Program-made: the position numbers and the translations under genes | The notes under the pieces: model-generated | What the model was told of the DNA's origin: nothing | Database searches by the model: none | What the model saw: only the letters and a program-made list of their open reading frames with translations | Assembly: GCA_035530115.1 (NCBI GenBank) | Contig: DATKVL010000109.1 | Location: 1-46,197, forward strand | Direction: 5' to 3' | DNA: 46,197 nucleotides | Origin: Dehalococcoidia bacterium | GTDB taxonomy: Bacteria > Chloroflexota > Dehalococcoidia > GIF9 > AB-539-J10 | Shown: positions 1 to 42,802 of the stretch, piece by piece | Layout of the letters: each line of letters begins with the position of its first letter | How positions within the stretch are numbered: position 1 is the first letter of the stretch

Positions 1-141
1 GTTGAAGATCAGGCTATAATGGTTGATGTGTTTAAGAATATTAGGGATAATAAATTACACGAGCAGGTATCCTTTCCTCAACAGCTATTTAATATGGTAG
101 GTGGAGTTTATGAGAAGAGGACTGGAAAGAAGTTAGAAGTA
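1..141. repeat. Terminal direct repeat (assembly/circularisation overlap), identical to 46057..46197
   Basis: Bases 1-141 (gttgaagatcaggctataatgg...agttagaagta) reappear exactly at 46057-46197. The repeat lies inside an open reading frame. Confidence 0.95.
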
Positions 142-3100
142 CTAGGCGGAGTTAATAAATCTGAGATTACTGTTGATAAGATAATCTCTGAATTCGACAA
201 TACATCTCTGGCCAAAGGTGAGGGTTATGAGATTAGAGATAAGAGAAGATTTGAATCTCCTGAGTCAGCACAAAAGGTTGCTGAACGTAAAGGCGCAGAT
301 CATGAAGTGATTAAGATAGGTGACAAGTATGCAGTAGGAAAGTTCATTGAAACTGATATTCCTGAATATGCTTCGATGGATGCTCTTAAAGCTGATCTTG
401 AAGTTATGAGTGAAATCCCCTATGCTAAAGCCAAGATAGAAGCTGAGCAGCCAGAGGGTTCGGAATTCTGGGTGGCTAAGGTAGGGGATAAATATTATAG
501 GACTGTTATTAAAGATCCTAATGCTCCTGTACGTCCTAATGTAGACTTTGTACCTGAAGAAGTTAAAGGTGTAGAGTCTGAGATTGAACCTACTCCTGAG
601 GTTCTTAAGGCTGAAGAGGTTCAGTTGAAAAAGGATCTTAAGGCTTTAGTTAAGGAGAGTAAGAAGGTAGATGCTCCTAAAGAAACAATCCGTCCAGAGA
701 TTGCAGATGCTTTTAAGAAGTATAAAGAACGCTATGTGGATAAAATCAACGTAGCAAAAGAAGTTCCAGTAACACCGAAAGATCTTCCGGTCATTGATTC
801 TAACTTTGCTACCTTCAAGTCTGAGGCTGAGGGTAATACTTACAAGGAAGCTACTGGAAAAAAGGGGGAGTTGATTCAAGATCCCTTGAGTAAAGAATGG
901 TTTATTGAACCTGAGTTGGAAGGATTTGAAGATCTTGGATGGGAAGATGGAGTGGAGAGTCTTACTTCTGAACATAGGAATAGGATCTCAGATGAGACTC
1001 TTGACTATGGTGAGATGAGTGAGGATGGAACTAGAGATCTCTTCAGTATATTCAGTAATGAGAGAGGGTCAGTAGATGTAACCCCTCTTCGTATAGCGGT
1101 AGATAAAATGGAACAAGTTGTTGAGGCATCTAAGAAAGCAGGGAAGAGTGTTGATGAATTCTTAGATATGATAGGTATGAGTCCTGAATCTATTGCCCAG
1201 TTCAAAGTAGCCTTAGCACAAATGCCTAAGGATAAGGAAACGCTTAGAAGTTTAGATCCTATTACTGAAAGGATCCTTAATCCAAGTGGCCCCGTAGTAC
1301 ATCAAACTGTTAAGAGGAATAAGTTAGGTGAGATTAAAAGTGTAATGCCTCCTATCACTCAAGTATTATCTTCTAAGATAATGAATGCTACTAGACATAA
1401 TATCTGGGGAGACTTGAATGTTAAGGTTGATCCTGTTAGTGGGAGGGAAATAACTAACGTTCACACAGGAACTATTCAGCGGTATCTTCAGGCTACTGAA
1501 ACTAGGATTAATGCCTTTAGAAGATTTGGACTCTCTGAAATCTATCGTGATTGGAGAGAGCTTAAGACTAAAAAAGAGTTGGAGTATAACTCTTTAGGTA
1601 AGGAGATTACACTTAAGAAGGATAGTCTTACTAAAAAAGAAAGAGAAGGATTAGCTCTGGCTGCTTATGCAAATATGAAGGGTGGAGAGGAAGCCTTCAC
1701 TGCTATGGGAATTAAGCCTGAAGATATTCCTATTATGAATGCTAAGCAAATGGAAGTATTCAATTGGATGACTAAGACTACCTCTAAGATGTTGGATAGA
1801 GTTAACTATGTCCGTACTCATACAGGACAGAAGCCTATTCCTAGACTCCTTGATAAAAATGGTAAAGAGAACTATCTCCCTCTCATGAGACAGATGAATG
1901 TTCTCAGAGAGATGGGAGTACTAGAGGGAATCACCACTACGGACGCTCGTAGAATTTCATCCATATCTAGTGACTACCATGGGATTTTTAATCCTCATGC
2001 TAAGGTACGTAAGGTATCAGATATTCCTATTGAGTTGGATGTATTCAAAGTAATGGAGTCTTATCTTAATTACACACTGGAGGAGATTTATACTGGGCCT
2101 CTTGCTGCACAACTTAAGGAATTAGCTACAGTACCACTACCTAAGCCTGGAGGTAAAGGTACTGTTATACTTAAGAATCATAACCCAGCACTGTCTCAAC
2201 TTCTTCTTAAGTGGTCTGATGAGATAATGGGAATAGATAGAACCTCTTCTATTATGGCTATTGAGAATCCATTCATCAGGAATGTGGCTCAACAGTTGAG
2301 TAAGAATATAGTTGTGGGAATTATAGGTGGGAATCTTCAGACATTTGTCAAACAATTTACGGCCCTCATAGGTGTATATGCTAACCTTGGTTTACTTGCA
2401 TCTTTATATGGGGCAGGTAGGTATATGATTGAGAAACCTTTTAAGGGAAGTAAGTCAGAAGCTCAGACTCTTTCCAACTCTCTTCATATCCGTAAAGCTG
2501 AATTGATATGGAGTGATTTTGTAGAACAGATGAGGTTGGGAACTCTGAAGGGAGGAAAGGCTATAGCCACTAAGATGGCTTTTGCCCCTATGGACCTAAT
2601 CGATAGTGTGGTAGCTGAGATTGGATGGAATGCTGGATTTCATTATGCTAAAGGTAAATTGAAGTTAAGGGAAAAAGATGCTATAGCCTATGCTGATGAT
2701 CTTGTAGAGAGAACTCAAGGTATGGGAACTAGAGGAGCTGTTTCTCCTATTCAGGCCAGCATTGCTACCAAATGGCTTACGCTTCTTCAGACCTTTGGAA
2801 TCGCAGATTTTAATTATATCTTACAGGATATAGCTGGGGTTAAAAATCCTGATATAACTAAACCTCAACAGGTAAGTAGAGCTTTTAGGTACAGCATAGG
2901 TGTAATGGTTATAGGAGAAATGTTCAAAGCAGCGGGACTTAACTCTCCATTTCCTACACCTGTTGATGCGTTTATGGAATCAAGAGATGAAGGTAAAGGA
3001 ATTCCTTCTGCCACCTTTAGTGCTTTGTTAGAGTTCACTGAAAAGCTTCCAGTATGGGGCGGATCAACTAAGTATGGAAGTAGTCTTGGTGGGGTAATTG

Positions 3101-3399
3101 GAGAGTTTGCACAGGATGTGCCAGAGGCTGCTAAGGCTGTTAATGATCTTATGGATTGGGGCAGTATGACTAAACGTCAGAAGTTGAATGCTAGCATGTT
3201 GATAGCTAAGTCGGTTGGATATGCTTGGGGTATTCCTATGACTAATCAGATACTTAAGGGAGTTAAGACTGCTAGCAGAGGGGGAGATCCTTATCAGATT
3301 ATCTTGGGGATTTATATAGATGAAAAGAAAAAGAAGAAGGGAGGAACTCCTAATTTTAAATTAGAAAGCCCCTCCCTTAAATTACCTAAAGGTCTATAA
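1..3399 (+). CDS. Giant virion/internal (ejection or tape-measure-like) protein, C-terminal part. Continues from 44920 across the circular junction for a total of about 1,511 aa.
   Basis: Frame 1 is open from base 1. Both 46057 and 1 are in the same frame as the ATG at 44920. Hydrophobic segments such as NIVVGIIGGNLQTF...LGLLASLYGAG are present. It is the last gene of the late arm. Confidence 0.85.
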   Translation, partial: VEDQAIMVDVFKNIRDNKLHEQVSFPQQLFNMVGGVYEKRTGKKLEVLGGVNKSEITVDKIISEFDNTSLAKGEGYEIRDKRRFESPESAQKVAERKGADHEVIKIGDKYAVGKFIETDIPEYASMDALKADLEVMSEIPYAKAKIEAEQPEGSEFWVAKVGDKYYRTVIKDPNAPVRPNVDFVPEEVKGVESEIEPTPEVLKAEEVQLKKDLKALVKESKKVDAPKETIRPEIADAFKKYKERYVDKINVAKEVPVTPKDLPVIDSNFATFKSEAEGNTYKEATGKKGELIQDPLSKEWFIEPELEGFEDLGWEDGVESLTSEHRNRISDETLDYGEMSEDGTRDLFSIFSNERGSVDVTPLRIAVDKMEQVVEASKKAGKSVDEFLDMIGMSPESIAQFKVALAQMPKDKETLRSLDPITERILNPSGPVVHQTVKRNKLGEIKSVMPPITQVLSSKIMNATRHNIWGDLNVKVDPVSGREITNVHTGTIQRYLQATETRINAFRRFGLSEIYRDWRELKTKKELEYNSLGKEITLKKDSLTKKEREGLALAAYANMKGGEEAFTAMGIKPEDIPIMNAKQMEVFNWMTKTTSKMLDRVNYVRTHTGQKPIPRLLDKNGKENYLPLMRQMNVLREMGVLEGITTTDARRISSISSDYHGIFNPHAKVRKVSDIPIELDVFKVMESYLNYTLEEIYTGPLAAQLKELATVPLPKPGGKGTVILKNHNPALSQLLLKWSDEIMGIDRTSSIMAIENPFIRNVAQQLSKNIVVGIIGGNLQTFVKQFTALIGVYANLGLLASLYGAGRYMIEKPFKGSKSEAQTLSNSLHIRKAELIWSDFVEQMRLGTLKGGKAIATKMAFAPMDLIDSVVAEIGWNAGFHYAKGKLKLREKDAIAYADDLVERTQGMGTRGAVSPIQASIATKWLTLLQTFGIADFNYILQDIAGVKNPDITKPQQVSRAFRYSIGVMVIGEMFKAAGLNSPFPTPVDAFMESRDEGKGIPSATFSALLEFTEKLPVWGGSTKYGSSLGGVIGEFAQDVPEAAKAVNDLMDWGSMTKRQKLNASMLIAKSVGYAWGIPMTNQILKGVKTASRGGDPYQIILGIYIDEKKKKKGGTPNFKLESPSLKLPKGL
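3319..3378 (-). terminator. Candidate intrinsic terminator for the leftward arm, embedded in the 3' end of the giant gene
   Basis: On the minus strand AAGGGAGG (3378-3371) pairs with CCTCCCTT (3344-3337), with an inner CTAATTT/AAATTAG stem. A CTTCTTCTTTTTCTTTTC tract follows. Confidence 0.4.
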
Positions 3400-4913: not shown

Positions 4914-5120
4914 CTAAAAACATATACAGTCTGGAGAACTACATCTATAACCATACCATCCATCCTTACGTAAATTTTCAGTAGTGCCACATACACAACA
5001 TTTAGGTATTTCTTTCTCTTTAGGAGGAGTCCATCCTAAAGTTACTAGTGCATCTCTAATAGCTATATCTTTTATAGGCCTTTTACATTTTATGCACTGT
5101 GTCATACCGTCGGTAGCCAT
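4914..5120 (-). CDS. Zinc-ribbon miniprotein (68 aa)
   Basis: CIKC...CCVC...CSSPDC cysteine pairs. Overlaps the polymerase stop. Confidence 0.6.
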   Translation of the reverse strand: MATDGMTQCIKCKRPIKDIAIRDALVTLGWTPPKEKEIPKCCVCGTTENLRKDGWYGYRCSSPDCICF

Positions 5121-7639
5121 CCTTGTGTTACCTCATAGTAAGATTGTTCAATAGATTGAGGATCAATAGATTTAAGATCCTTAGCCTTTGTCATATTTGC
5201 TGCCATATTTGAAGGATATTTCTTTCGCAGATTTTCAAAAGTTAATTCTTTATTAAGACAAACTCCCATAGTTACATCAGCAGGGATTATAAACCGCTGT
5301 CCATAGTGAGTATAGAGTGGTGTCTCAAGACTCTGCTTAACCATGGTCAGAATCCTTGAGTGATCTTCCCAACTCACTGGAGTTTCAGGATGCAGAGGAG
5401 ATGGGATTTGAAATCCTATCTGATCATGTACCTGAATTAATAGTTGAACATATTTAAAGAGTGGGTTAGTATTATAATATACATAGTTGATTCCCCTCTG
5501 ATCAATCACATCTCCAACTGTTCCTTGAGGTATGCAAGCATAGCCATCCTTATAGAGTGCGTCGTCAAGGCGATCAGTAAAGAGAGTCTTACGACCCATG
5601 TAATTAGTTAAGGTTCTATTCTTGTTGATGCATTGTTTGATGTAAGCATGAAAGCCACTTCGCACCCCAGGATATGCTTTGTGATAGATGTCAACAATCA
5701 TCTTACCATCACGTTCAGGGATCTCATTATACAAGGAGAAGGTCTTAAAGCCGAGGTCATAGTTAAGACCATGATTGGCTTTCTTTCCCCAGTCACGCCA
5801 TGTCTTCTTACCATCGCCAATAGGGGCTAAGTCCTTCACAGTTAAGTGATCAGACTTACCATTGAAGAAGATGTTCATCATAATTCTGGCAGTCAGTCCG
5901 TGAATATCCTCACCTCTTTCAAAGGCTTCAATCATCTGAGTGATGCGGCCGATGTAGGCGACCAATCTATTCTCAGCTTGACTTAAGTCCAGCCCATAAA
6001 AGATATGCCAAGGGTCTGCTAAGAAATGGGTGAGGACTCTGTGAGGTTGATTTTGCAAGTTATTTCCTGTTCCAAATATGTTTTCAGAGGAAGAAACTCT
6101 GGAGAATCTGGTTCCGACGGGATTATATGAGCACCGCATTCTTCCGTCTACATCAACTTTAGCAGGGTCGAGGAAAGTGCTTCGCTCTTTTGAAAGTCCC
6201 CGGAGTCTAAGGATGAGTGAAGCTTCTCCATAACCTTTTCTTGCAATCCTCTTAAGTGCTTTCTCATCTGTAGTGTCTCCTCCGGTTTTATTCTTATATG
6301 CTGGTAAGCCTTTCTGTTTATAGAAATAACTAGCTACCTGTTTAGGTGAGTTGGGATTGATGTCAAACTTACAAACCTTGTGAAGTTCCTTTAGAGTATC
6401 CTCCATCTCATGGCCCATCTCATTGTAAGCCTGAGTCATGGAGGCTACGTTTATTCGAATTCCCTTCTCCATAATGTAGACGTAGGCAGGGATAGTTTTA
6501 CACTTACGCTCATAAGCATAGTAGTTCTGCTGACGGATCAGATCTTGGAGTTGCTTAGGCAGGGCTTCAGCACAGACTGCTGAGTCAAGAGCATTGTATC
6601 TCCAACCACTCTCAAAGTTTCCTATTCCCTTCAGCCAATACTTACCATCATCCTTGTAGTATGGGATGTCAGTATAAAGAGAGCAGATGAAATGCAGACC
6701 TACAGCATAGTCAGGGAGGAGGGTCTTCTGAGCTATCATAGTGTCGTGCATATTCCTTACCTTGATCCCATACTTACGAAGCATATAGTGGGAATCAAAG
6801 CAGAGATTTTGCCCACACTTTTCTATCTCAGCATTTTCTAGTAGACTGGCTATCTTAAGGAGAATGGTTATCTCTTGATCAATGGTAAAGTAATCTCCAT
6901 GTTCACATGTGAAAGGAATGCTGATGATATTCTCAGCATCGTAGGCAAAGGAGATACAGGTCATTTCTCCGTTGAATACATCTACTTCAATGTCGTATGA
7001 GATGGGATTCCCCATCAGACCATACTGCTCACAGGCTGTGAGGAACTGCATAGATTGTGAGAAGGTAGGACGTATTGTTATCTGACGAGGGGTAGGAATG
7101 TGCCCATTCTCTTGGATCTTCTTAGCCCGTTTAAGATCCATGATCAGAAGACGTTTGTTCTTGTAGACATACTTGTAAGTGATAGTATCTGGGTGAAGTG
7201 CAGGGATTACTATCTTATCTCCACCAATTAGATTGGAGCGGAGAATGGAACTACGCCAGCGGTTAATACCCCACCTATCGGTGAGTGCAAAGAGAGGTAT
7301 ATTTCCCAGGGTTATGATTACCTTAGCTGAACATGAGTTGATTTCAGCGGCCAGTTGGTTGATATACTCCTGCCCTTCAGGATGGATTACCGGACCTTTC
7401 TTCGTGAACTCTATGTAGTGAGCAATAGGGCGGTCTATATCTTTAATGACATTAGTAAAGTAACACTCACTCCTAGTGATCCCTGCCTTGTGAAGATTAT
7501 CATCAAGCTCCAAGCCTGATAGTCCACAGAATGGACGACCTTTCATTACTTCAGATCGACCAGGTTGCTCGCCTATCACGATGTACTTGGCAGTTAGTTT
7601 GTCGCCCGAAGATGGGACGTATGTTGCTTTGGGTATCAT
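5102..7639 (-). CDS. Uracil-DNA-glycosylase-like domain fused to family-A DNA polymerase with 3'-5' exonuclease
   Basis: N-terminal family-4 UDG motifs GEQPG...PFCGLSG and ALHPD. Exonuclease motifs YDIEVD, NLCFDSHY, YNALDSAV. Polymerase motifs DLSQAENRL, KKANHGLNYD, QVHDQ. The start at 7639 is ATGA-coupled to the upstream ORF with an AAAGGA SD. Confidence 0.92.
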   Translation of the reverse strand: MIPKATYVPSSGDKLTAKYIVIGEQPGRSEVMKGRPFCGLSGLELDDNLHKAGITRSECYFTNVIKDIDRPIAHYIEFTKKGPVIHPEGQEYINQLAAEINSCSAKVIITLGNIPLFALTDRWGINRWRSSILRSNLIGGDKIVIPALHPDTITYKYVYKNKRLLIMDLKRAKKIQENGHIPTPRQITIRPTFSQSMQFLTACEQYGLMGNPISYDIEVDVFNGEMTCISFAYDAENIISIPFTCEHGDYFTIDQEITILLKIASLLENAEIEKCGQNLCFDSHYMLRKYGIKVRNMHDTMIAQKTLLPDYAVGLHFICSLYTDIPYYKDDGKYWLKGIGNFESGWRYNALDSAVCAEALPKQLQDLIRQQNYYAYERKCKTIPAYVYIMEKGIRINVASMTQAYNEMGHEMEDTLKELHKVCKFDINPNSPKQVASYFYKQKGLPAYKNKTGGDTTDEKALKRIARKGYGEASLILRLRGLSKERSTFLDPAKVDVDGRMRCSYNPVGTRFSRVSSSENIFGTGNNLQNQPHRVLTHFLADPWHIFYGLDLSQAENRLVAYIGRITQMIEAFERGEDIHGLTARIMMNIFFNGKSDHLTVKDLAPIGDGKKTWRDWGKKANHGLNYDLGFKTFSLYNEIPERDGKMIVDIYHKAYPGVRSGFHAYIKQCINKNRTLTNYMGRKTLFTDRLDDALYKDGYACIPQGTVGDVIDQRGINYVYYNTNPLFKYVQLLIQVHDQIGFQIPSPLHPETPVSWEDHSRILTMVKQSLETPLYTHYGQRFIIPADVTMGVCLNKELTFENLRKKYPSNMAANMTKAKDLKSIDPQSIEQSYYEVTQGWLPTV

Positions 7640-7821
7640 ACAGTATCCTTTATATGACATGAGGGACAATTTTCTAATGAGCATCCAGTATAACCTACAT
7701 CAACTATTCCGTGTCCGCCACATTCTTTACATTTAAGATCAGCCTTTGGATTTATAGGATAGCCAAGACGATCTGGAATCCATTTAGCTTTTTCAAACTC
7801 TTTTCTTTTTAATGATTTCAT
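7636..7821 (-). CDS. DnaJ-type zinc-finger miniprotein (CxxCxGxG)
   Basis: Contains CKECGGHG plus CPSC. Its stop overlaps the polymerase start (ATGA). Confidence 0.65.
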   Translation of the reverse strand: MKSLKRKEFEKAKWIPDRLGYPINPKADLKCKECGGHGIVDVGYTGCSLENCPSCHIKDTV

Positions 7822-18032: not shown

Positions 18033-18061
18033 ACAATACCATATGAATGTACAGTTGTCAA
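18033..18061 (-). promoter_or_regulatory. sigma70-type promoter (TTGACA-N17-TATTGT)
   Basis: On the minus strand TTGACA is at 18061-18056 and TATTGT at 18038-18033, separated by a 17-nt spacer. Confidence 0.6.
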
Positions 18062-18074
18062 CATCTTGGTGAAA

Positions 18075-18281
18075 TTATTTTTTGGGCTTATGAATCCAAT
18101 AGTAGTAATTACAAATAGGACACTGCTCTTCTGAACTACTTATATCAGATGGGCATCTATCACCAGACTGGAGACCAACCTTATTAGCATAATCATATTC
18201 CCTATCACAAGCACAGAATATCTGAACTCTCTTATACTGATTGTTAATGTAGAATTTCTTCTTCTTAGTTTTCTTAGTCAT
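18075..18281 (-). CDS. Zinc-ribbon miniprotein (68 aa)
   Basis: CAC...CPSD...CPIC. AGGAGA SD directly after noncoding element A. Confidence 0.6.
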   Translation of the reverse strand: MTKKTKKKKFYINNQYKRVQIFCACDREYDYANKVGLQSGDRCPSDISSSEEQCPICNYYYWIHKPKK

Positions 18282-18302
18282 TGAAGTCTCCTAATTATTT
18301 AT

Positions 18303-18490
18303 CAGTGCGCGGGCGTCGCAAGCTCCGCCCTGCGCAACAACATACATGAGAAAACCAGTGTACCGCTTCGATCTAAAGCGAGTATCCGCCGCCATACATG
18401 AGAGCCAGTCCGTCTGCCCGGCCACTTTCCTATCGGTACTACCCGACATACAAAAGCAACTGCGCTTTTGAAAAAGAATAAGATCATGAT
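18303..18490 (-). ncRNA. Noncoding element A, candidate structured RNA and paralog of 30491..30696
   Basis: Six collinear blocks are shared with element B at near-identical spacing. GC-rich hairpins are present. The overlapping 61-aa Arg-rich track ORF has no SD. Confidence 0.55.
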
Positions 18491-18493
18491 TCT

Positions 18494-18850
18494 TTAAGTT
18501 GTTGGATTGATGCTAGCTTCCTTCCTATTGGATTCAAGTAGAGAGTGGATGAGACTCTCACGGGCTTCAGTAGTCATGCTGTCGAGGGATGCGAAGAGTT
18601 CCTCCTCACGAAGTGGTGCGGTGGGGATTGTAGATCGACGGACTTTAGGGATTATAGTAGGAAGTTTAGTGATCTTACCAGCTGATTCCCAGATGTTGAT
18701 CTGGAGGTTGATTCTCTCCCTATCCAGAGATTGGAAGAGTTTCTGACGAGAGGCTAGTTTATCCTTAATATCTTGGATTTCCTCACGAAGTTCTTTAAGA
18801 ACTATGGCCAACTCTTGGAGACGGGGATTAGATTGTAATTTTTCACTCAT
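18494..18850 (-). CDS. Coiled-coil hypothetical protein (118 aa)
   Basis: ORF track. ATGA-type overlap with the upstream gene. Confidence 0.6.
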   Translation of the reverse strand: MSEKLQSNPRLQELAIVLKELREEIQDIKDKLASRQKLFQSLDRERINLQINIWESAGKITKLPTIIPKVRRSTIPTAPLREEELFASLDSMTTEARESLIHSLLESNRKEASINPTT

Positions 18851-19303: not shown

Positions 19304-19813
19304 CTATTCTTTAGCCTGCTCAGGAATCATCCCAAGAGATTTCTTGAACTCCTCAGTTCTTTCATTAGATTCAGCCACTCTCTCTTGGAGTTCCTCACTC
19401 AGTCGGTTCTCCAGATTAGCCAGAGCCATCTGATGGGTAGGTTTACTTACTTTAGTCTTAGGAGTAGTAAGGGCGGCTGAAGGCTGGAGGGATGTGGTCA
19501 AAGAGTCAAGAGACATACCTTCGGCAATCATAGCAGTGGCCATATTCCGAGGGTTTATCTTCTGAACCTTGAGGCTCATTCTCTCCAACACCATCATGGC
19601 CTCTTCTTGGGTCTGCGGGAAGTCAGCTTTACCTGAGAGTGTGAGGAGTTCAGCGAAACTCTCCATACTTAGTCGGATAAGTTCACTAATGGAGGAGGGA
19701 GTCTCACCGACTGAGGCCCAATAAAGAGCGAGGGTCGCCAGGTAACGAGCATCCACTCGACTGGTGAGGATGAGGGTTGCAGGACGGTTCTTTACTTCGG
19801 ATAGTTTACTCAT
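19304..19813 (-). CDS. Putative ribbon-helix-helix DNA-binding protein (169 aa)
   Basis: The N-terminal pattern TLILTSRVDARYLATLALYWASVGETPSSISELIRL fits beta-strand, helix, G-x-T/S, helix. AGAGGA SD before MSKLSE. Confidence 0.4.
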   Translation of the reverse strand: MSKLSEVKNRPATLILTSRVDARYLATLALYWASVGETPSSISELIRLSMESFAELLTLSGKADFPQTQEEAMMVLERMSLKVQKINPRNMATAMIAEGMSLDSLTTSLQPSAALTTPKTKVSKPTHQMALANLENRLSEELQERVAESNERTEEFKKSLGMIPEQAKE

Positions 19814-20057
19814 TAGTTTTCCTCTTTTCAATCAAATCCTTAAAGTAATCCAGAACTTCTCTCCATGTATGGAATCCAGGAGATATCTGACAGTCATTAG
19901 GAAAGTTGATGAATCCTTTCTTCTGTTTCTTATTGATTTGAGCCATCTCTTCCTTAGAATACCAAGGATATTGAAGATAGGAATTCTGCAATGAGCATGG
20001 ATGCTCGGTGAGCTTGCTCAGTTGGGCGGTTACTTGAGCCATGGTTAGATCTTTCAT
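19806..20057 (-). CDS. Hypothetical protein (83 aa)
   Basis: GGAGA SD 5 nt upstream of the ATG. Confidence 0.6.
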   Translation of the reverse strand: MKDLTMAQVTAQLSKLTEHPCSLQNSYLQYPWYSKEEMAQINKKQKKGFINFPNDCQISPGFHTWREVLDYFKDLIEKRKTNE

Positions 20058-20066
20058 GAGGATCTC

Positions 20067-20393
20067 CTATTGAAATGCACAGTTAGTGTTTATATAACAG
20101 CTGAGTCTTTCATAATGCTTATCAAGATCAGTACCTTTTATCTGACCTGCTTTAATACCTTTTACAACTTCATGAAAGTATTTCCTATAATTATTCAAAG
20201 CACTCTTAATATTTATTTTAGGATCATGAAGTTTCTTATTAAGGCATACAGTAAATCTTGAAGCATTTGCAATTCTTACTATAGTAATGCCTATGTGATA
20301 GTTAACTCCTACTACTTTGGACTTACAAACTGATCCATCATTATAGATATAGTCAATTTCTACTCCTTCAAGTTCAGGGTAGTCAGTTTTCAT
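20067..20393 (-). CDS. Hypothetical protein (108 aa)
   Basis: ORF track. ATGA coupling with the upstream gene. Confidence 0.6.
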   Translation of the reverse strand: MKTDYPELEGVEIDYIYNDGSVCKSKVVGVNYHIGITIVRIANASRFTVCLNKKLHDPKINIKSALNNYRKYFHEVVKGIKAGQIKGTDLDKHYERLSCYINTNCAFQ

Positions 20394-23963: not shown

Positions 23964-24455
23964 TTAATATTCTTCTGCGTCCCCAGGATCGACAAAGATC
24001 GGATCGCCATCCTCGTCCAACTCTGGAGTGTTGTCCACTTCCTCCTGCTTTACTTCGTTGCCACCTGCTTCGAGAAACTTACTCCAGTCGTTCCTGATCT
24101 GCCCCTGCCATCCCCCTCGTACATTCCACAAGAAAGCCCTAACCTCCTCCGGTGACTTCCCGGCAAGGTATGCCCGAATGTCGTCCTCAGTAATCGGGCG
24201 GGTACGATTGCGGCCGCCCTCGAAGAGAGGGACTCCGAATGTTACAATCTTCGGGAGTTTCCCACTGAGGAACTTATCCCAGTTGTTCCTGATCTGCCCC
24301 TGCCATATGACAATCTGATTCGCAATGGCATGACGCTGAATGATCGAGGGATCAACCCCGTCAAATGAACATTCAAACTCTACTTCCTTGAAATTCTTCG
24401 CGGCCTTCTGCTCCGCATCCATTGCCACTTTAAACTTCACAGTTGTTGTGCTCAT
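23964..24455 (-). CDS. First early protein (163 aa) with an internal duplication and acidic C-terminal tail
   Basis: WQGQIRNNWDKFL and WQGQIRNDWSKFL repeats. C-terminus DEDGDPIFVDPGDAEEY. AAGGAGA SD. Lies downstream of the consensus early promoter. Confidence 0.75.
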   Translation of the reverse strand: MSTTTVKFKVAMDAEQKAAKNFKEVEFECSFDGVDPSIIQRHAIANQIVIWQGQIRNNWDKFLSGKLPKIVTFGVPLFEGGRNRTRPITEDDIRAYLAGKSPEEVRAFLWNVRGGWQGQIRNDWSKFLEAGGNEVKQEEVDNTPELDEDGDPIFVDPGDAEEY

Positions 24456-24638: not shown

Positions 24639-24666
24639 ATTATACCAAATTTGAGGGATTTGTCAA
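24639..24666 (-). promoter_or_regulatory. Leftward early promoter P_L, consensus sigma70 with extended -10
   Basis: On the minus strand TTGACA is at 24666-24661, then a 16-nt spacer ending in TGg, then TATAAT at 24644-24639. Confidence 0.75.
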
Positions 24667-28528: not shown

Positions 28529-28540
28529 TCGGTGTGTACT

Positions 28541-30487
28541 ATGCCTCCAGTTCTAAGGGGAGAAGGTAATTATAGATCATCTAACCCGTCCATGGGAGTT
28601 AAGCATGAGTATGCTTATCCAGATGGATTGGATTTTACTCCTGGCTCTAAACTTCATAATCGCGTCAGAGATGAAGTTATGGAGAGGGCCTACAATAGTG
28701 CTAAGGTTATGTCTAGGAGACATGCTGCGTGGAATGAGATAGACTTCACTCTTACAGCCTACATCCCTGCAGATGAGAAGGAGAATCTTCTTAAGGAGAA
28801 GGATTCAAGAAAGCCTATCTCTGTAGTCTTTCCATACTCTTATACAGTATTGGAAACTCTTCTGAGTTACTATGTAGCGGCCTTTCTTCAGGAACCTATC
28901 TTCAGATATGAAGGTACTGGACCGAGTGATGTAATTGGAGCAATCCTTCTAGAAAAACTTATCAGCCTCCAGTGCCAAAAGAATAAGGTGGGGCTTAACT
29001 TACATACTCAAGCTAGAGATGCATTCTCTTATGGGTTTGGAGTTACTACCCCTACTTGGGTTACTGAGTATGGGAGGAAGTCTGTTAAAAAGACTTCTGG
29101 GGGATTCCTGGGATTTGGTAGTAAGACTACTACTGTAATGGAGAATCAACTTCTTTTTGAGGGGAATTCTCTTGAAAATATTGACCCTTATTTATATCTC
29201 CCAGATGTTAATGTCCCTATACATGAACCTCAAAGGGGGGAGTATGTAGGATGGTTGAACACTACCAACTACATGACTCTGTTGAGTGAAGAAAGGAATG
29301 ACTCAGACCTGTTCAATGTTAAGTATCTCAAACAGTTGAATGGGAGAAGATCGGGGATTATCTCTGGTGACAATACTGGTAGGAATACCAAGAGTGGTAT
29401 GTCCACTAGGGATCAATTTGCTGAGAGTACTTCCAGTGCTTTGGACAGGGTGAAAATGTTCGTTAGACTCATTCCTAAGGATTGGGGCCTGGGAGATAGT
29501 GAGTACCCTGAGATGTGGTACTTTGAACTTGGGTCTGATGAGATTGTACTACGGGCTAACCCAGCTAATCTAGATCACAATAAGTTCCCAGTGAGTGTAA
29601 TCGCCCCTGATTATGATGGATACTCATTGGCCCCCATCAGTAGGATAGAAATTCTCTACGGAATGCAAGGAGTCCTCGACTTCATGTTCAACAGTCATGT
29701 TGCTAATGTGAGGAAAGCCATTAACGATATGATTATCTACGATCCTTACCTAGTGAATAGTAATGATCTTAAGAACCCGGCTCCTGGAAAACTCATCAGA
29801 CTCCGTCGCCCAGCTTGGGGAAAGGGAGTTAAAGACGTCGCTCAACAGCTTGGGGTTTCGGACGTCACACGGGGAAACATTGCTGATTCAACATGGCTCG
29901 TACAGTGGATGGATCGGATTTCTGGAGCCGATTCCGCTATGTCAGGATCACTTAGGCAGGGAGGTCCTGATCGGCTTACTGGGACAGAATTCCAAGGTAC
30001 CCGCGCTGGAGGACTTAACAGGCTGGAGAGAATTGCTAAAGTAGTAGGTATGCAGGGCTTGCAAGATATAGGTATGTTCTTCGGCCATCATAACAAACAA
30101 ATGATGACTAATGAGAGTTATATTAAACTTGCTGGAGATTGGCAAGATGTTCTTCTCAAGGAATTTGAACAGTCTGTAGATCGTGGACGAGTCATTGTAA
30201 GTCCTGATCAGCTAGACATCAACTATAATGTAATGGTCAGGGATGGATCCATCCCAGGTGGAAACTACGCTGATACTTGGGTTCAACTATTTCAGATCCT
30301 AGGATCTAATCCTGAACTCGCGCAGAACTTTGATGTAGTACGTATCTTCACACATATTGCCCGTAACTTGGGTGCAAAGAACGTTAATGACTTTGTAAGG
30401 AAGGGTGGTAACATCCAACAGAAATCTATGTCGAATGAAGGAATTAGAAGTCAAGTTGATGCAGGTAACTTGGTGCCATTAACTTAG
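28541..30487 (+). CDS. Portal protein
   Basis: About 648 aa, immediately after TerL. The ATG at 28541 is preferred over the GTG at 28532. Confidence 0.75.
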   Translation: MPPVLRGEGNYRSSNPSMGVKHEYAYPDGLDFTPGSKLHNRVRDEVMERAYNSAKVMSRRHAAWNEIDFTLTAYIPADEKENLLKEKDSRKPISVVFPYSYTVLETLLSYYVAAFLQEPIFRYEGTGPSDVIGAILLEKLISLQCQKNKVGLNLHTQARDAFSYGFGVTTPTWVTEYGRKSVKKTSGGFLGFGSKTTTVMENQLLFEGNSLENIDPYLYLPDVNVPIHEPQRGEYVGWLNTTNYMTLLSEERNDSDLFNVKYLKQLNGRRSGIISGDNTGRNTKSGMSTRDQFAESTSSALDRVKMFVRLIPKDWGLGDSEYPEMWYFELGSDEIVLRANPANLDHNKFPVSVIAPDYDGYSLAPISRIEILYGMQGVLDFMFNSHVANVRKAINDMIIYDPYLVNSNDLKNPAPGKLIRLRRPAWGKGVKDVAQQLGVSDVTRGNIADSTWLVQWMDRISGADSAMSGSLRQGGPDRLTGTEFQGTRAGGLNRLERIAKVVGMQGLQDIGMFFGHHNKQMMTNESYIKLAGDWQDVLLKEFEQSVDRGRVIVSPDQLDINYNVMVRDGSIPGGNYADTWVQLFQILGSNPELAQNFDVVRIFTHIARNLGAKNVNDFVRKGGNIQQKSMSNEGIRSQVDAGNLVPLT

Positions 30488-30490
30488 ATC

Positions 30491-30696
30491 TCAAATCATG
30501 CTTATTCTTTTTCAAGGTGCTGTTGCTGTTGTATTATACTACTGCTGATGTAGGACAGTGGCCTGGCAAGCCCATGGTATTCTCATTGTGTACCTGCGAC
30601 GGGCATGTTAGATGCACATTTGGTATTCTCATCTTTATACGTGTTTGATGTAGGTTTTTTTAGCGAGCATTGGCGCGGAACGCACCATGCGAGCAT
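30491..30696 (+). ncRNA. Noncoding element B, candidate structured RNA and paralog of 18303..18490
   Basis: 229-bp gap between portal and the next gene. Blocks CTTATTCTTTTTCAA, GTTGCTGTTGTAT, AGTGGCCTGGCA, TCTCAT, TTAGAT and TGGTATTCTCAT are collinear with element A. Confidence 0.55.
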
Positions 30697-30716
30697 AGAA
30701 AAGTTTAAGGAGTCTT

Positions 30717-31019
30717 ATGGAACGTGAACTTAAAAATCTACCATTGAATCCAGTAAGAGACTATACACCTATCTCTTCACCTGGATCTATTGGAAGTTTT
30801 ATCGAAAGTACTATCCATATAGACTTCATCAATGAGTTAACTCTTCGTATCGAGCAACTTAGAGATTATAATGAAGTTTGTGATAGTAAGAAGTATCTTG
30901 AAACACGTGGGGCCATAGCAGCTTTAAGACTTGTAGGGGATATATTCCAAGACTTGATGCAAAATGCTATGACTGATAACACTACTCCAAATGAAGAGGA
31001 AATTGAAGATGAACCTTGA
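30717..31019 (+). CDS. Hypothetical acidic protein (100 aa)
   Basis: AAGGAG SD 5 nt upstream. Confidence 0.65.
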   Translation: MERELKNLPLNPVRDYTPISSPGSIGSFIESTIHIDFINELTLRIEQLRDYNEVCDSKKYLETRGAIAALRLVGDIFQDLMQNAMTDNTTPNEEEIEDEP

Positions 31020-35043: not shown

Positions 35044-35058
35044 TATTTAACATGAGTG

Positions 35059-35082
35059 CCGGGGGGATGAGAGTCCCCTCGG
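35059..35082 (+). terminator. Post-capsid hairpin (attenuator or terminator without a U-tract)
   Basis: CCGGGGGGA (35059-35067) pairs with TCCCCTCGG (35074-35082) in a 9-bp stem containing one G-T pair, with loop TGAGAG. Confidence 0.45.
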
Positions 35083-35110
35083 TGCTACGTTGATTAAATC
35101 ATCATAGGGA
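35082..35110 (+). promoter_or_regulatory. 29-bp quasi-palindromic motif, copy M8
   Basis: gtgctacgttGATTAAATCatcataggga. Its 3' end supplies the AGGGA SD for the ATG at 35116. Confidence 0.8.
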
Positions 35111-40906: not shown

Positions 40907-41911
40907 ATGCGTATATATTCTGAGATAAAGTTTATATGGGATGGGGTTACTAATTCCTATATAGAAGTATCTTCTAATTATGAAGAGTATGTAGGAGAGG
41001 TAGCTTTATGTAAAGGTGGCAGTAGTAGTAGTGGGGGTGATCAGACTACTACTGTAAGATATGCTCCTTATGTAGAGTCTGCCCATAGTAATTTCCTATC
41101 TACAATACAGGCTAAAAGAAATCTTGTTATAAATAACTCTCCATTTGTAGGGTATGTTAATATAGATGTAGATGATGGATTTTTTGGGGCTGGATATATT
41201 ATAAGTAGTTTCCCTTCCTTGTATGATATGTACGGGAAGTTCATGGCAGGGCTTGATATCGAAGCTTTGTGGAATGAGATATTGGGAAGTACAGTAGAAT
41301 CTGCAGTAGTTAAAGATTTAATATCTGCACAATCTGCTATGTTGGATGAAGATATAATTATCAACTCTGTTCCTAGATTACAGACAGGTGCTAGAGATAT
41401 TAATTCTGTAATGAGTTCATCATTTGTTATAGGTAAAGCTATTATAGAAGATGCTAAAACTAAAGCATTATCCTTATTCAGTGCTAATTTAAAGTACCAG
41501 ATGATCTCACTGGCTGATGGTAGATGGAGAGCTCATCTTGACTGGAATAAGAATGTTATAGGTGTATATTCTGAGATAATGAAGTTCTACTATTCTACCA
41601 AGATTGACGTAGATGATGCTAATTATTCTATGGTTGCTAAGGATAGGTTATGGCCATTTACAGTTTTGGATTTTGAGAGGGCAGCTCTCGGAGCTCTTCA
41701 AGGCGCTATTAATACGAAGACAGACGTAGCTGGAGCCTCTACTGCCTCTAAAGTATTAGGGGGAGCTCTTAGTGGTGCTGCTATGGGAGCAGCTATAGGT
41801 AGTAATTTTAATACTGCGGCTACCTCAACTACAGCTGCAAGTACTGCAGGCAGTGCTTGGGGAGCTGGAGCTGGTGCTGTATTAGGAGTTGCTGCAGCTC
41901 TTACTTACTAA
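40907..41911 (+). CDS. Virion protein, paralog 1 (334 aa) with a Gly/Ala-zipper C-terminus
   Basis: Shares TVRYAPYVE.AH..FL, FPSLYD..GK.MAGLDIE.LWN, SSSFV.GKA.IED and LWPFTVL.FE with 41924..42802. Confidence 0.65.
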   Translation: MRIYSEIKFIWDGVTNSYIEVSSNYEEYVGEVALCKGGSSSSGGDQTTTVRYAPYVESAHSNFLSTIQAKRNLVINNSPFVGYVNIDVDDGFFGAGYIISSFPSLYDMYGKFMAGLDIEALWNEILGSTVESAVVKDLISAQSAMLDEDIIINSVPRLQTGARDINSVMSSSFVIGKAIIEDAKTKALSLFSANLKYQMISLADGRWRAHLDWNKNVIGVYSEIMKFYYSTKIDVDDANYSMVAKDRLWPFTVLDFERAALGALQGAINTKTDVAGASTASKVLGGALSGAAMGAAIGSNFNTAATSTTAASTAGSAWGAGAGAVLGVAAALTY

Positions 41912-41923
41912 TAAGGATTAATT

Positions 41924-42802
41924 ATGGGCGGGGGTGGAAGTGGGGGAAGTTCTGGGGGAGATGTAGTAAGGACTACTAGGTATGCTCCATATGTAGAGGA
42001 AGCTCATAATAGTTTTCTTAACAATACTACAGCAGTTAGAAATACTATCATAGATGATTCCCCTTATTTAGGGTTTACTAACATCACTACAGATGAGGCA
42101 TTCTTTGGAATTGGATATATTATGGGGAGTTTTCCATCTCTCTATGATACCTTCGGAAAGTACATGGCAGGATTGGATATTGAGGAGTTATGGAATAAGG
42201 TAGCTTCAGAGATATTTAATAATCCAGATATAGATTCAGATATTAAATCTAGGATGCAGGTTATAGATGATGATATAACATTAAAGCTTGCAGCATTTAC
42301 TTTAAGTATGCGTAATGTAAACTGTACCAACTCATCATCCTTTGTAGTAGGTAAAGCAGTAATAGAGGATTATAGATTAAAGATGCTGAGTGATGTAAGT
42401 AAGGAAGTAAAGTTTAGACTTCTCCCTAATATCCAAACTGATTTTATAACCTCGTTGAATTGGAATTCAGGAAATGTTAAAGTATATGCATTATCTATGA
42501 AGTTATACTTTACATCAAAGTTGGCTGCAGATGATGATAATTATACTAATGCTGCAAGAGACATTCTATGGCCTTTTACAGTATTAGGATTTGAATTAAT
42601 GGCTATTGGAGCCCTTCAGGGAACTAGAGCATTTCAAAAAACTGCTGATAGAGTAGGAAGGTCTGGAGTTTCTAAAGGGCTTTTAGTACTTTCAAATACT
42701 GTAACTGGTGCTTATATTGGATCATCATGGGGGCCTGTAGGAACAGTAGTTGGAGCTGTTGTAGGTTTTGTAATTGGAATAGCAACTTTATTCTTTGAAT
42801 AA
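41924..42802 (+). CDS. Virion protein, paralog 2 (292 aa) with a hydrophobic Gly-zipper C-terminus
   Basis: Tandem paralog of 40907..41911. C-terminus GPVGTVVGAVVGFVIGIATLFF. Confidence 0.65.
   Translation: MGGGGSGGSSGGDVVRTTRYAPYVEEAHNSFLNNTTAVRNTIIDDSPYLGFTNITTDEAFFGIGYIMGSFPSLYDTFGKYMAGLDIEELWNKVASEIFNNPDIDSDIKSRMQVIDDDITLKLAAFTLSMRNVNCTNSSSFVVGKAVIEDYRLKMLSDVSKEVKFRLLPNIQTDFITSLNWNSGNVKVYALSMKLYFTSKLAADDDNYTNAARDILWPFTVLGFELMAIGALQGTRAFQKTADRVGRSGVSKGLLVLSNTVTGAYIGSSWGPVGTVVGAVVGFVIGIATLFFE

Follow-up and report, generated by a model that had tools for sequence, protein, structure and literature searches.

Elements A and B in their genomic setting

Within the window, by which we mean the whole stretch of 46,197 nt that was analysed, two intergenic regions on opposite strands hold related sequences. 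Element A (18282..18493, minus strand) lies between a gene for a 118-aa protein (18494..18850) and one for a 68-aa protein (18075..18281), a gap that measures 212 bp as previously reported, and its paralog, element B (30488..30716, plus strand), lies between the portal gene (28532..30487) and a gene for a 100-aa protein (30717..31019). Their parts are the following:

18495-18473: P1, a weak pairing of the first part of the T-rich block with the stop-codon region (AAAGAAT/ATTCTTT, about -1.4 kcal/mol)
18302..18487, minus: 61-aa ORF (MILFFFKSAV...), unique to this window
18468..18482, minus: T-rich block CTTATTCTTTTTCAA, identical in A and B
18451..18470, minus: hairpin CAAAAGC-GCAGTT-GCTTTTG, specific to copy A
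18431..18448, minus: P3 hairpin TGTCGG-GTAGTA-CCGATA, whose 3' arm adjoins the core block
18415..18432, minus: core block TAGGAAAGTGGCCGGGCA, whose primary sequence is the best conserved in the family (TAGGAMAKYGGYYKGRCA)
18346..18403, minus: middle domain of A, with the TCTCAT block (18403-18398), TTAGAT and a second TGGTTTTCTCAT (18357-18346)
18376-18371, minus: TTAGAT, in the loop of a CGCTT/AAGCG hairpin (18380-18364)
18307..18335, minus: 3' terminal hairpin of A, GCGC-A-GGGCG [GAGCTTGCGA] CGCCC-GCGC, with a conserved bulged A and no U-tract
18279..18293, minus: Shine-Dalgarno sequence (AGGAG) and start codon of the downstream 68-aa gene
30539-30553, plus: hairpin CTAC-TGCTGAT-GTAG, 5' of the core block of B
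30551..30568, plus: core block of B, TAGGACAGTGGCCTGGCA
30667..30690, plus: 3' terminal hairpin of B, GCAT-T-GGCGCG [GAA] CGCACC-ATGC, with one C.A mismatch

The six ordered blocks that the preliminary description had reported as common to A and B were all found in place, and re-measurement of the spacings between them returned the same values (7/6, 21/22, 11/12, 21/21 and 13/7 nt in A/B). The window has two copies of the shared 15-mer CTTATTCTTTTTCAA and no more, at 18482-18468(-) and 30501-30515(+). The local alignment of A with B scores 57, against 17.2 +/- 2.3 for shuffles (maximum 30) and 16 for A aligned with the reverse complement of B, and the family HMM (nhmmer) recovers A with E = 4.6e-47 and B with E = 1.7e-43. 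Judged from these alignments, A and B are true paralogs, which have diverged inside one genome and retain the six blocks in the same order; between the diverged copies, blocks persist and spacers vary. No further copies were found beyond these two in the window, nor elsewhere in 347 kb of related loci. The paralogy seems to start about 12 nt 5' of the upstream stop codon, where the upstream ORFs of the A and B loci agree at 7-10 of their last 12 nt and both end in ACT-TAR. The gap had also been described as far more GC-rich than its flanks, an overstatement: A, at 49-52% GC (flanking genes 44% and 33%, genome 41%), reaches the 95th percentile of 200-nt windows, and B, at 43%, is not GC-rich.

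In all members of the family, the element begins at the stop codon of the upstream gene, while its downstream neighbor differs: this may encode a 68-aa zinc-ribbon-like protein, a GNAT or a 100-aa head-module protein, and in some members no gene precedes the next promoter. L018 and L029 lack the 68-aa gene 3' of the element, L033 carries an insertion of a GNAT gene after B, and in L018, L029 and L043 a promoter stands directly 3' of the element with no gene between. Both loci are hot spots of gene gain and loss, and what borders the inserted genes is not the element but duplicated microhomologies, either of the ribosome-binding site or of AAATAAT. Element A sits at the border where an early cluster of small genes meets a replication cluster; the latter is served by a conserved TTGACA-17-TATTGT promoter of its own. 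The nearest promoter-like sites lie 0.8-6 kb upstream of the elements, no promoter follows B, and no conserved promoter was found within the element: as candidates, a sigma-70 promoter (TTGCGA in the hairpin loop, with no conserved -10 partner) and a sigma-54 promoter (wrong spacing) were both rejected. No phage RNA polymerase gene was found and the promoters are of the sigma-70 type, which implies that the phage depends on the host polymerase; a T7 class II terminator (CTGTT) was discarded since the phage has no RNA polymerase.

Distribution and conservation of the family

Members of the family come only from metagenomic podophage-like genomes that form a narrow clade, with SU10-type portals of at least 81% identity. 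The nearest cultured relative is a Desulfofustis phage with 39% portal identity. Relatives with portals of 75% identity or less do not have the element, and their two genes simply overlap, which indicates that the element is dispensable. BLASTN against 50,697 phage records gave no match for the element or its 3-kb neighbourhood. The larger collections were scanned with degenerate core patterns, two on viral contigs, one on metagenome contigs and one on genome contigs. The viral-contig scans returned this clade only; the metagenome scan returned two true matches, both duplicates, plus two GC-rich chance matches (L023 and L024); and among 185,579 species genomes there was no match, hence no host or prophage copy. 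The latest protein look-ups made for more diversity gave only copies identical or nearly identical to known ones. The preliminary description could not assign the element to an RNA family, and no described family was matched here: Rfam 15 at the gathering threshold gave no match in the window or in nine related loci, matches at E up to 10 were at chance level with none on the conserved parts of the element, and ARAGORN found no tRNA or tmRNA. By these searches, the element is new and narrowly distributed.

At the B locus, the copies come in two forms, a long one of about 230 nt and a short one of about 165 nt, the latter without some 65 nt of the middle domain. Copies at the A locus are found in one sub-clade only, so that A is probably a later duplicate of B. 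The proposal that each copy is oriented with its own transcription arm is based on two loci only, A on the minus and B on the plus strand, and the short-form clade has a single copy, that at the B locus.

The identity of the element among members is 0.78-0.97 where the 4-fold degenerate sites of the adjacent portal gene show 0.41-0.81, and the A locus gives the same result. In the deepest comparison, that of the long with the short form, the element stands at 0.78 while both flanks are at 0.47-0.61, near saturation. Measured against these sites, the element is conserved above the neutral rate. Part of the excess could come from recombinational exchange, given that synonymous identity is visibly mosaic; the modules of the family are mosaic as well, since L043 joins a 5' part like that of L028 to a 3' part like that of L018, and the loop and tail of L026 are A/L003-like.

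Coding capacity and structure

The 61-aa ORF noted earlier does exist (18302..18487) and is shortened to 16-27 codons in the remaining A-locus copies. The view that conservation acts on the nucleic acid and not on a peptide is borne out by the homologous gaps, which keep the blocks while no frame is open across all members. An argument formerly given for this view, that the 15-mer is read in different frames in the two copies, is right for the two ATG-initiated ORFs, but one frame of B reads the 15-mer as A does. Stops fall at different places among members, changes in the core block are mostly non-synonymous, and frames on either strand, including the antisense ATGAGA (complement of TCTCAT), are inconsistent between members, which also led us to reject a read-through or frameshift extension of the upstream gene. 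A conserved start-bearing frame with mostly synonymous change, as expected for a gene encoding a small protein or leader peptide, was not found. From this comparison of members, we consider that the element is non-coding.

A hairpin had been described as closing each element, and it is present in A and B with clear covariation once the homologous gaps are aligned. Across the family, 98.8% of the cells in its stem are paired and eight of the nine pairs show double compensatory changes, a level reached by 0/500 shuffles, and slid controls fall to 19-51% paired. The loop is freely swapped among members (GAGCUUGCGA, GAGCAAAGCGA, GACA, GAUA or GAA), a pattern to be expected if the stem is the part that counts. 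The stem has 9 bp plus the bulged A; it extends to about 18-19 bp in A (where G.U pairs can lengthen it to 18342-18300), L028 and L032, reaches only about 11 bp in B and L001, and measures 9-13 bp in several members. The hairpin sits 15-35 nt 5' of the next ribosome-binding site. It consists of Watson-Crick pairs only, with no G.U, and its sole mismatch, the C.A in B, would be a G.T on the other strand, so that the helix alone cannot separate an RNA from a DNA hairpin. No member has a U-run 3' of the hairpin, where the sequence continues as ACTGATAAAT in A, GAGCATAGAAAAG in B and GAACAACCCGG in L003, and a terminator scan found no intrinsic terminator at A or B. Without a U-tract, the terminal hairpin is not an intrinsic (Rho-independent) terminator.

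The other hairpins named in the preliminary description are all present (CAAAAGC/GCTTTTG, TGTCGG/CCGATA, CGCTT/AAGCG and the terminal one in A; CTAC/GTAG and GCAT/ATGC in B), but their equivalence of place holds only in part: in the relatives, TTAGAT falls in a loop if the copy is A-type and in a stem if it is B-type. P3 is kept in relatives with compensatory changes, and its G.U pairs would be C.A on the antisense strand; these changes lend the helix modest comparative support that is specific to the sense strand. The sense strand as a whole is predicted to fold 14-15 kcal/mol more stably than the antisense. The designation of the element as a structured RNA is therefore upheld for two helices, the terminal hairpin and P3, which have comparative support, and not for a defined global fold. 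The folding energy does not differ significantly from that of shuffles (MFE z = -0.71 for A and -0.08 for B), and group-wise RNAalifold and subdomain folds differ between members, again with z-scores that are not significant, so that no consistent global fold was found. In the predicted folds of many members, the core is not single-stranded but pairs with the upstream GYUKUU repeats, the region that is spanned in A by the hairpin at 18451..18470.

Two long-range interactions were considered and rejected. For a closing helix, or anti-Shine-Dalgarno pairing, of the T-rich 15-mer with the A-rich tail and the Shine-Dalgarno sequence, cognate duplexes are no better than non-cognate ones and shuffles, and no conserved pairing sequesters the Shine-Dalgarno sequence and start codon of the 68-aa gene. 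Kissing of a GCUUGC loop with GCAAGC of the core does not explain the conservation, since B, L001 and L033 keep the core and lack the loop. The family comprises only about five independent sequence lineages, and with this number only one helix can be validated.

Possible functions of the element

We tentatively favor, at a confidence well short of even, the reading of A and B as a non-coding intercistronic RNA module that is maintained by selection and acts in cis at the post-transcriptional level; transcription, cis action, processing or stabilization and factor binding are all steps that we infer. Each copy would be transcribed within the polycistronic mRNA of its arm. The first part of the module would be a sequence-conserved 5' domain of about 130 nt, running from the T-rich tract after the stop codon through the GYUKUU repeats, P3 and the core UAGGAMAGUGGCCNGGCA to UCUCAU, and serving as a putative binding site for a modulating factor, either a protein or the ribosome. 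The second part would be the stable, bulged, GC-rich 3' hairpin without U-tract, a candidate clamp for processing or against exonucleases, in the manner of a phage RNase III site or a REP element. This clamp would determine where the upstream cistron ends and how stable it is, and would keep the next ribosome-binding site insulated. A plain stabilizing or processing hairpin would leave about 130 nt of conserved primary sequence unexplained, which speaks against this reading. If the element functions as RNA, a compact non-coding module under selection would have been acquired by a phage between the portal and the downstream head-module genes and then duplicated into the early arm, and it would offer a tractable case of phages evolving post-transcriptional control points inside operons, with a practical value limited for now by the fact that the family belongs to one small clade of uncultivated phages.

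The RNase III sites of T7 (R0.3, R0.5, R1.1 and others) offer one model for such a clamp. Like the elements described here, they form a family of paralogs oriented with transcription, each a hairpin without U-tract whose stem is interrupted by a bulge or internal loop, located between the cistrons of a polycistronic phage mRNA just upstream of the next ribosome-binding site. A T7-type site is expected to span about two helical turns; the extended stem reaches about 19 bp in L028 and L032 and only about 11 bp in B and L001. However, a T7 site is a stand-alone hairpin of about 60 nt, whereas a conserved domain of about 130 nt lies 5' of the hairpin here; T7 has ten of them against one or two copies per genome here, and there is no sequence similarity. 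A second model is provided by REP/BIME elements, which are likewise GC-rich, imperfect, bulged palindromes without U-tract, intergenic in operons (the transcription of our element being presumed), and which act as 3' exonuclease barriers that differentially stabilize the upstream cistron. REPs measure 20-40 nt, start with a GTAG-type tetranucleotide, exist in tens to hundreds of copies and are mobilized by RAYT (Y1) transposases; our element differs in its two copies, its long conserved 5' domain and the absence of a transposase among the scanned proteins.

A control of transcription elongation is a less probable function, which we regard as unlikely: the element would be a terminator or attenuator at operon boundaries that lacks a U-tract or depends on a factor, or else a nut/put-like antitermination RNA that acts in cis and modifies the host RNA polymerase, one per divergent arm. 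It would suit a phage that relies on the host polymerase and in which canonical intrinsic terminators are not enriched (13 found in the genome vs 11.9 expected), as well as the place of A at the boundary of the replication cluster. The two opposite-oriented paralogs of the sub-clade, about 6 kb either side of divergent promoters, recall nutL/nutR of lambda and putL/putR of HK022, which are also pairs of paralogous sites, one per divergent operon, oriented with transcription in phages using the host RNA polymerase, and the succession of UCUCAU, spacer and hairpin is loosely like the short linear motif and hairpin of boxA-spacer-boxB. Yet the conserved motif, K-Y-UCUCAU, does not fit the boxA consensus GCUCUUUA, there is no put-like two-stem fold, and no N- or Q-like gene was identified. 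Furthermore, the elements lie 0.8-6 kb from the candidate promoters and are thus not promoter-proximal, the short-form clade has the B copy only, the hairpin is without U-tract, and an unregulated terminator between the portal and the scaffold/capsid genes, with no promoter after B, would be counter-productive.

We give a similarly small chance to a discrete, stable RNA of about 170-200 nt that would be cut from the mRNA and act in trans, as an sRNA with the core as its seed, a protein sponge or a small ribozyme. The primary sequence of the core is more conserved than the surrounding stems, as is typical of seeds or catalytic cores, the 3' hairpin could shield a processed 3' end, and the AU-rich 5' tract is plausible as an RNase E entry site. 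In addition, the element persists with no gene before the next promoter in L018, L029 and L043, and, as many phage sRNAs, it is accessory and restricted to one clade. Against such an RNA stand the lack of a promoter of its own and of a terminator, the predicted pairing of the core with the GYUKUU repeats in many members, the absence of any match to a ribozyme or sRNA of Rfam, also when E was raised to 10, and the fact that no complementary target stands out in the window.

An element that works as DNA, either single-stranded or duplex, for example a strand-specific priming or primosome-assembly signal of the ssi/sso kind or another protein-binding or recombination site, we deem quite unlikely. 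Signals of the ssi/sso type combine conserved sequence boxes with a GC-rich hairpin that has a conserved loop, and the element has such boxes and a GC-rich hairpin whose loop was once conserved and whose covarying pairs are purely Watson-Crick. From their coordinates, the inverted copies at about 18.4 and 30.6 kb are roughly symmetric about a divergent region at about 24.5 kb, so that the structured strand would be the lagging-strand template on both sides of a central origin; the gain and loss of genes at both loci would fit as well. Nevertheless, the symmetry could be a coincidence, the central origin is hypothetical, and the short-form clade has a single copy. No site-specific recombinase, Rep protein or transposase was recognizable among the scanned proteins, and gene insertions are flanked by other microhomologies. 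A MITE or non-autonomous transposon was looked for in particular: its two terminal segments, 5' and 3', match each other as complements no better than shuffles or non-cognate pairs do, and comparison with empty sites revealed a rebuilt junction and no evident target-site duplication, from which we conclude that the element is not MITE-like.

A leader mini-ORF, or a small hydrophobic peptide of the form M(x)LILF(Q/H)SAV..., is in our view distinctly unlikely. In this proposal, ribosomes would re-initiate at an AUG 6-10 nt past the stop codon, and either translation would remodel the downstream RNA or the peptide would be the product. Such a start, followed by an ORF of 11-27 codons, is present in nine of the 13 copies, including every A-locus copy; all these ORFs run through the GYUKUU repeats and stop close to P3 or the core, and the apparent beginning of the paralogy about 12 nt before the stop codon points in the same direction. 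The two T-to-A differences in the T-rich block of the short form are synonymous in this frame (CTT ATT CTT TTT -> CTT ATA CTA TTT), but the same changes are also compensated in hairpin P1. The start codon is missing in four to five B copies (L001, L026, L027, L033 and L044), that is, in most of the long-form ones, the 15-mer frame differs in the window's own A copy, and the mini-ORF has no Shine-Dalgarno sequence, whereas strong AAGGAG sites precede the real genes of this phage. Depending on the member, the repeat region translates as AVAV, AVCC, CCLLL or AFCC, which means that the peptide is not conserved beyond MLILF.

It also seems rather improbable that the element represents a new class of phage functional RNA, be it factor-binding, a sponge, polymerase- or ribosome-modifying, or a small ribozyme, which would be released from the mRNA or act within it and would have been acquired beside the portal and copied to the opposite arm; if so, the early and late transcription units would share one control point. 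Very improbable, finally, is a functionless or selfish duplicated spacer that seems conserved through recent exchange among close phages, as its restriction to this clade in viral, metagenome and genome contig scans, its dispensability in relatives and the mosaicism of modules (L043, L026) and of flanking synonymous identity might suggest, because conservation is block-wise with compensatory changes in stems and not uniform, the element exceeds both flanks in the deepest comparison, and A and B still hold six blocks in order.

Several known RNAs were dismissed as models. A riboswitch is at odds with the varying class of the downstream gene and with the lack of a terminator and of a Shine-Dalgarno-sequestering helix, and a packaging RNA like the phi29 pRNA is at odds with close relatives whose portals are 75% identical and which lack the element. 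No covariance model supports the likenesses to the CR-I motif of RNase P (AGGAAAGU..CCGGGC) and to 4.5S RNA, and the positions concerned are different in the ancestral B form. Of note, while T4-type PeSL cassettes are short, numerous and carry an early promoter inside, and our element has no conserved promoter and sees its neighbors inserted or deleted via other microhomologies, it resembles these and other phage intergenic repeats in being a stem-loop module at a place where small accessory genes come and go.

Two paralogous elements in a phage-like genome

An exact 141-nt direct repeat at its two ends shows the window to be a complete phage-like genome of ~46 kb (about 46,056 bp); the repeats are either genuine direct terminal repeats or the product of circular assembly. 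Its gene products include a large terminase subunit, an SU10-type portal, an ATP-dependent ligase, a family A DNA polymerase and ThyX, and none of the proteins scanned was recognized as an RNA polymerase. Two divergent transcription arms with sigma-70-type promoters originate at ~24.5 kb. No nucleotide match was obtained among 50,697 phage records, and the closest cultured portal, from Desulfofustis phage LS06-2018-MD01, is 39% identical. Element A lies 3' of a coiled-coil 118-aa gene, where the early small-gene cluster ends, and element B lies immediately 3' of the portal gene.

Terminal repeats and elements in the window
1-141 and 46057-46197: exact 141-nt direct repeat, at both window ends
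18282-18493 (212 bp), minus strand: gap holding element A, between 18494..18850 (118 aa) and 18075..18281 (68 aa), both minus-strand
30488-30716, plus strand: gap holding element B, between the portal gene and a 100-aa gene

The six ordered blocks that the preliminary description reported as common to the two elements were recovered with its coordinates exact, its inter-block spacings (7/6, 21/22, 11/12, 21/21 and 13/7 nt in A/B) reproduced and all of its hairpins present. The resemblance is well above chance, since the window contains the T-rich 15-mer at exactly two places and the local alignment of A with B scores 57, versus 17.2 +/- 2.3 (maximum 30) for shuffles and 16 in the opposite orientation. 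The similarity appears to begin ~12 nt 5' of the upstream stop codons, with 7-10 of the last 12 nt identical, and the upstream ORFs at both loci terminate in ACT-TAR. The GC content of A, described as far above that of its flanks, is indeed raised, though not far (49-52%, versus 41% for the genome and 44% and 33% for the flanking genes), and that of B (43%) is unremarkable against the genome.

Portal relatives for the B-locus survey were collected from viral contigs and from ENA and Logan assemblies via protein look-ups. Every genome with a portal at least 81% identical has a homolog of the element in the same gap, either in a long form of ~230 nt (loci L001/L002, L026, L027, L033, L044 and L048) or in a short form of ~165 nt that misses ~65 nt of the middle domain (L003, L004 and L012). 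With portals at most 75% identical (L005-L011, L013) there is no gap, the stop codon of the portal gene overlapping or abutting the start codon that follows. At the A locus, copies lie 3' of 118-aa gene homologs (L018, L028, L029-31, L032 and L041-43). They are missing from short-form genomes: in L046 and L047, the homolog is directly followed by a different 59-aa gene. The B copy is therefore the probable ancestor, from which A would have been duplicated later. An HMM search of 347 kb (window plus related loci) yielded no copies beyond the known ones, and scans of viral contigs, metagenomes and species genomes for the core pattern gave no copy beyond the clade of this phage. The distribution of the element is very narrow.

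Selection, coding potential and secondary structure

The element is far more conserved than adjoining neutral sites. Between lineages, its identity at the B locus is 0.78-0.97, where 4-fold degenerate positions in the portal gene give 0.41-0.81, and at the A locus it is 0.79-0.85, versus 0.56-0.60 at neutral sites; in the deepest comparison, long versus short form, the element retains 0.78 and both flanks 0.47-0.61. The synonymous identity of the flanks is mosaic, so some exchange has taken place. Conservation is block-wise and concerns the T-rich tract, the GYTKTT repeats, TAGGAMAGTGGCCNGGCA, TCTCAT and the flanks of the hairpin.

The proposal that this conservation acts on the nucleic acid rather than on a peptide is borne out, as the 61-aa ORF is found only in the window and frames are inconsistent among copies; the supporting remark that the 15-mer is read in different frames holds relative to the two ATG-initiated ORFs and not otherwise. 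Read from the same start codon, the frame stays open for 16-17 codons in L018, L028 and L029, and for 27 in L032. A mini-ORF, M(x)LILF..., is present in 9 of 13 copies, its start codon being absent from four long-form B copies. The repeat region falls in differing frames across copies (AVAV, AVCC, CCLLL or AFCC), L012 has a stop codon in one frame within the core block, the most conserved primary sequence of the family, changes in that block are mostly non-synonymous in every frame, and antisense ORFs starting from ATGAGA use two different frames. Together, the lost start codons, shifting frames, L012 stop, core changes and antisense differences disfavor a conserved peptide, and the element reads as non-coding.

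Covariation in homologous gaps, a check suggested in the preliminary description, is seen for the 3' terminal hairpin: in an alignment of nine distinct sequences, pairing holds in 98.8% of cells, double-sided changes affect 8 of 9 pairs, none of 500 shuffles reaches the observed values and slid controls are 19-51% paired. Copies differ in the lower stem (GCGC/GCGC, GCAT/ATGC, GCAC/GTGC or ACGC/GCGT) and in the upper stem (GGGCG/CGCCC, GACGC(GG)/(CC)GCGTC, TGGCC/GGCCA or GGCGC/GCGCC), and a bulged A is kept (T in two copies). The loop GAGCUUGCGA, which can form tandem G.A pairs and a CUUG tetraloop closed by G-C, is replaced elsewhere by GAGCAAAGCGA, GACA, GAUA or GAA.

The comparative data suffice to validate this one helix only. 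P3, a candidate small hairpin of the 5' part whose 3' arm is set against AGGAMAG, is kept through a change of both partners of one pair between A and L032 (C-G to A-U) and, in relatives, through sense-strand-only G.U pairs (A-U to G.U in L027, C-G to U.G in L033). In B, L003 and L026, P3 is weak or missing. P1, a second candidate joining the stop-codon region to the T-rich block, is energetically marginal (-3 to +5 kcal/mol). Pairing of the GYUKUU repeats with the core is predicted in 8 of 12 members, and one U-A pair is exchanged for G-C when A and B are compared; the register shifts among members and many pairs are G.U, so this pairing is not compelling. A long-range helix joining the T-rich block to the Shine-Dalgarno-proximal tail was rejected on testing. 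Overall MFE z-scores for A and B are non-significant (sense, -0.71 and -0.08; antisense, -1.06 and -0.47); the fold of the sense strand is more stable than that of the antisense strand by 14-15 kcal/mol, owing to its G+U-rich composition.

Possible nature of the element

The element is non-coding and is selected at the nucleotide level. At both loci it points in the direction of transcription and is anchored at the upstream stop codon, its downstream neighbor varies, and the stable hairpin that ends it is not a terminator. On these grounds we tentatively favor a cis-acting intercistronic RNA module, composed of a hairpin clamp and a factor-binding 5' domain. The hairpin would be a processing or exonuclease-barrier clamp, a role we liken to those of T7 RNase III sites and of REP elements, and the sequence-specific 5' domain a putative factor-binding site.

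Other readings are kept because a simple stabilizer has no need of 130 nt of conserved sequence. Control of transcription elongation and a processed RNA acting in trans are both unlikely, and to the same degree. A strand-specific signal at the DNA level is slightly more doubtful; since all pairs of the 3' hairpin are Watson-Crick, that helix alone cannot separate RNA from DNA. A mini-ORF device, a shade less probable again, is retained as a minor rival because two short-form changes in the T-rich block are synonymous, but the same two changes are also compensated in P1. Neutral or selfish DNA, the null, is the least probable reading.

The element matches no Rfam family, the outcome of another check suggested at the outset. 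It failed as an intrinsic terminator (no U-run follows the hairpin in any family member), as a small protein gene (inconsistent frames and start codons), and as a REP, nut/put, MITE or riboswitch. Set against the roughly two helical turns of a T7-type RNase III site, its stem of 9 bp plus a bulged A extends to about 18-19 bp in A, L028 and L032 but to only about 11 bp in B and L001. The family is new in sequence but broadly familiar in kind, namely a hairpin-containing element between phage cistrons, whose conserved 5' domain this kind does not account for.

Other features of the phage genome

Between the divergent arms, at 24639-24666 (minus strand), is a promoter that fits the consensus perfectly (TTGACA-16-TATAAT with TG). 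A strong sigma-70-type promoter, TTGACA-17-TATTGT with extended TG (18033-18061, minus strand), lies just 3' of the 68-aa gene, marks the start of the replication-gene cluster and is kept in all relatives (L018, L029, L043, L047), including those without element A. The 68-aa gene itself (18075-18281), which encodes a lysine-rich, four-cysteine, zinc-ribbon-like protein, is missing from L018, L029, L041 and L043, its deletion being bounded by AAATAAT microhomology; in L043, a 165-aa gene is inserted 3' of the promoter in its place. In L033, a GNAT acetyltransferase gene (19695-20075) separates element B from the 100-aa gene; this moron-like insertion is flanked by an 18-nt duplication that covers the ribosome-binding site and the start region (TTAAGGAGAATTATGGAA).

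The window also contains about ten near-perfect 27-nt palindromes, unrelated to elements A and B.

Palindromes in the window
~729, 8017, 12656, 16193, 19269, 23157, 24818, 28500, 35083 and 38696: consensus TGCTAYGTKGATTWAATCMACRTAGCA

Most are intergenic, just 5' of gene starts on both arms, and a dimeric phage regulator likely uses the palindromes as operator or promoter sites; the copy near 729 is inside a 1126-aa ORF (19..3399), and the one 5' of the homolog of the 118-aa gene is also present in L047 (2262-2290). The strongest local hairpin of the window (35050-35092, -26.6 kcal/mol, GCCGGGGGGA-TGAGAG-TCCCCTCGGT) is directly 3' of the major capsid gene, just 5' of a palindrome copy, and lacks a U-tract; this phage may commonly punctuate its operons with GC-rich hairpins of this U-tract-less type.

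Within a 163-aa gene (23964..24455), a 40-nt direct repeat, 90% identical (24072-24111 and 24267-24306), encodes a repeated WQGQIRN(N/D)W(D/S)KFL motif. The adjoining genes 40907-41911 and 41924-42802 are paralogous (~70% nucleotide identity over 165 nt, 81% over 36 nt) and are probably duplicated tail or fiber genes. The family A DNA polymerase (5102-7684) carries an N-terminal uracil-DNA-glycosylase-superfamily domain (residues 25-176), followed by 3'-5' exonuclease and polymerase domains.
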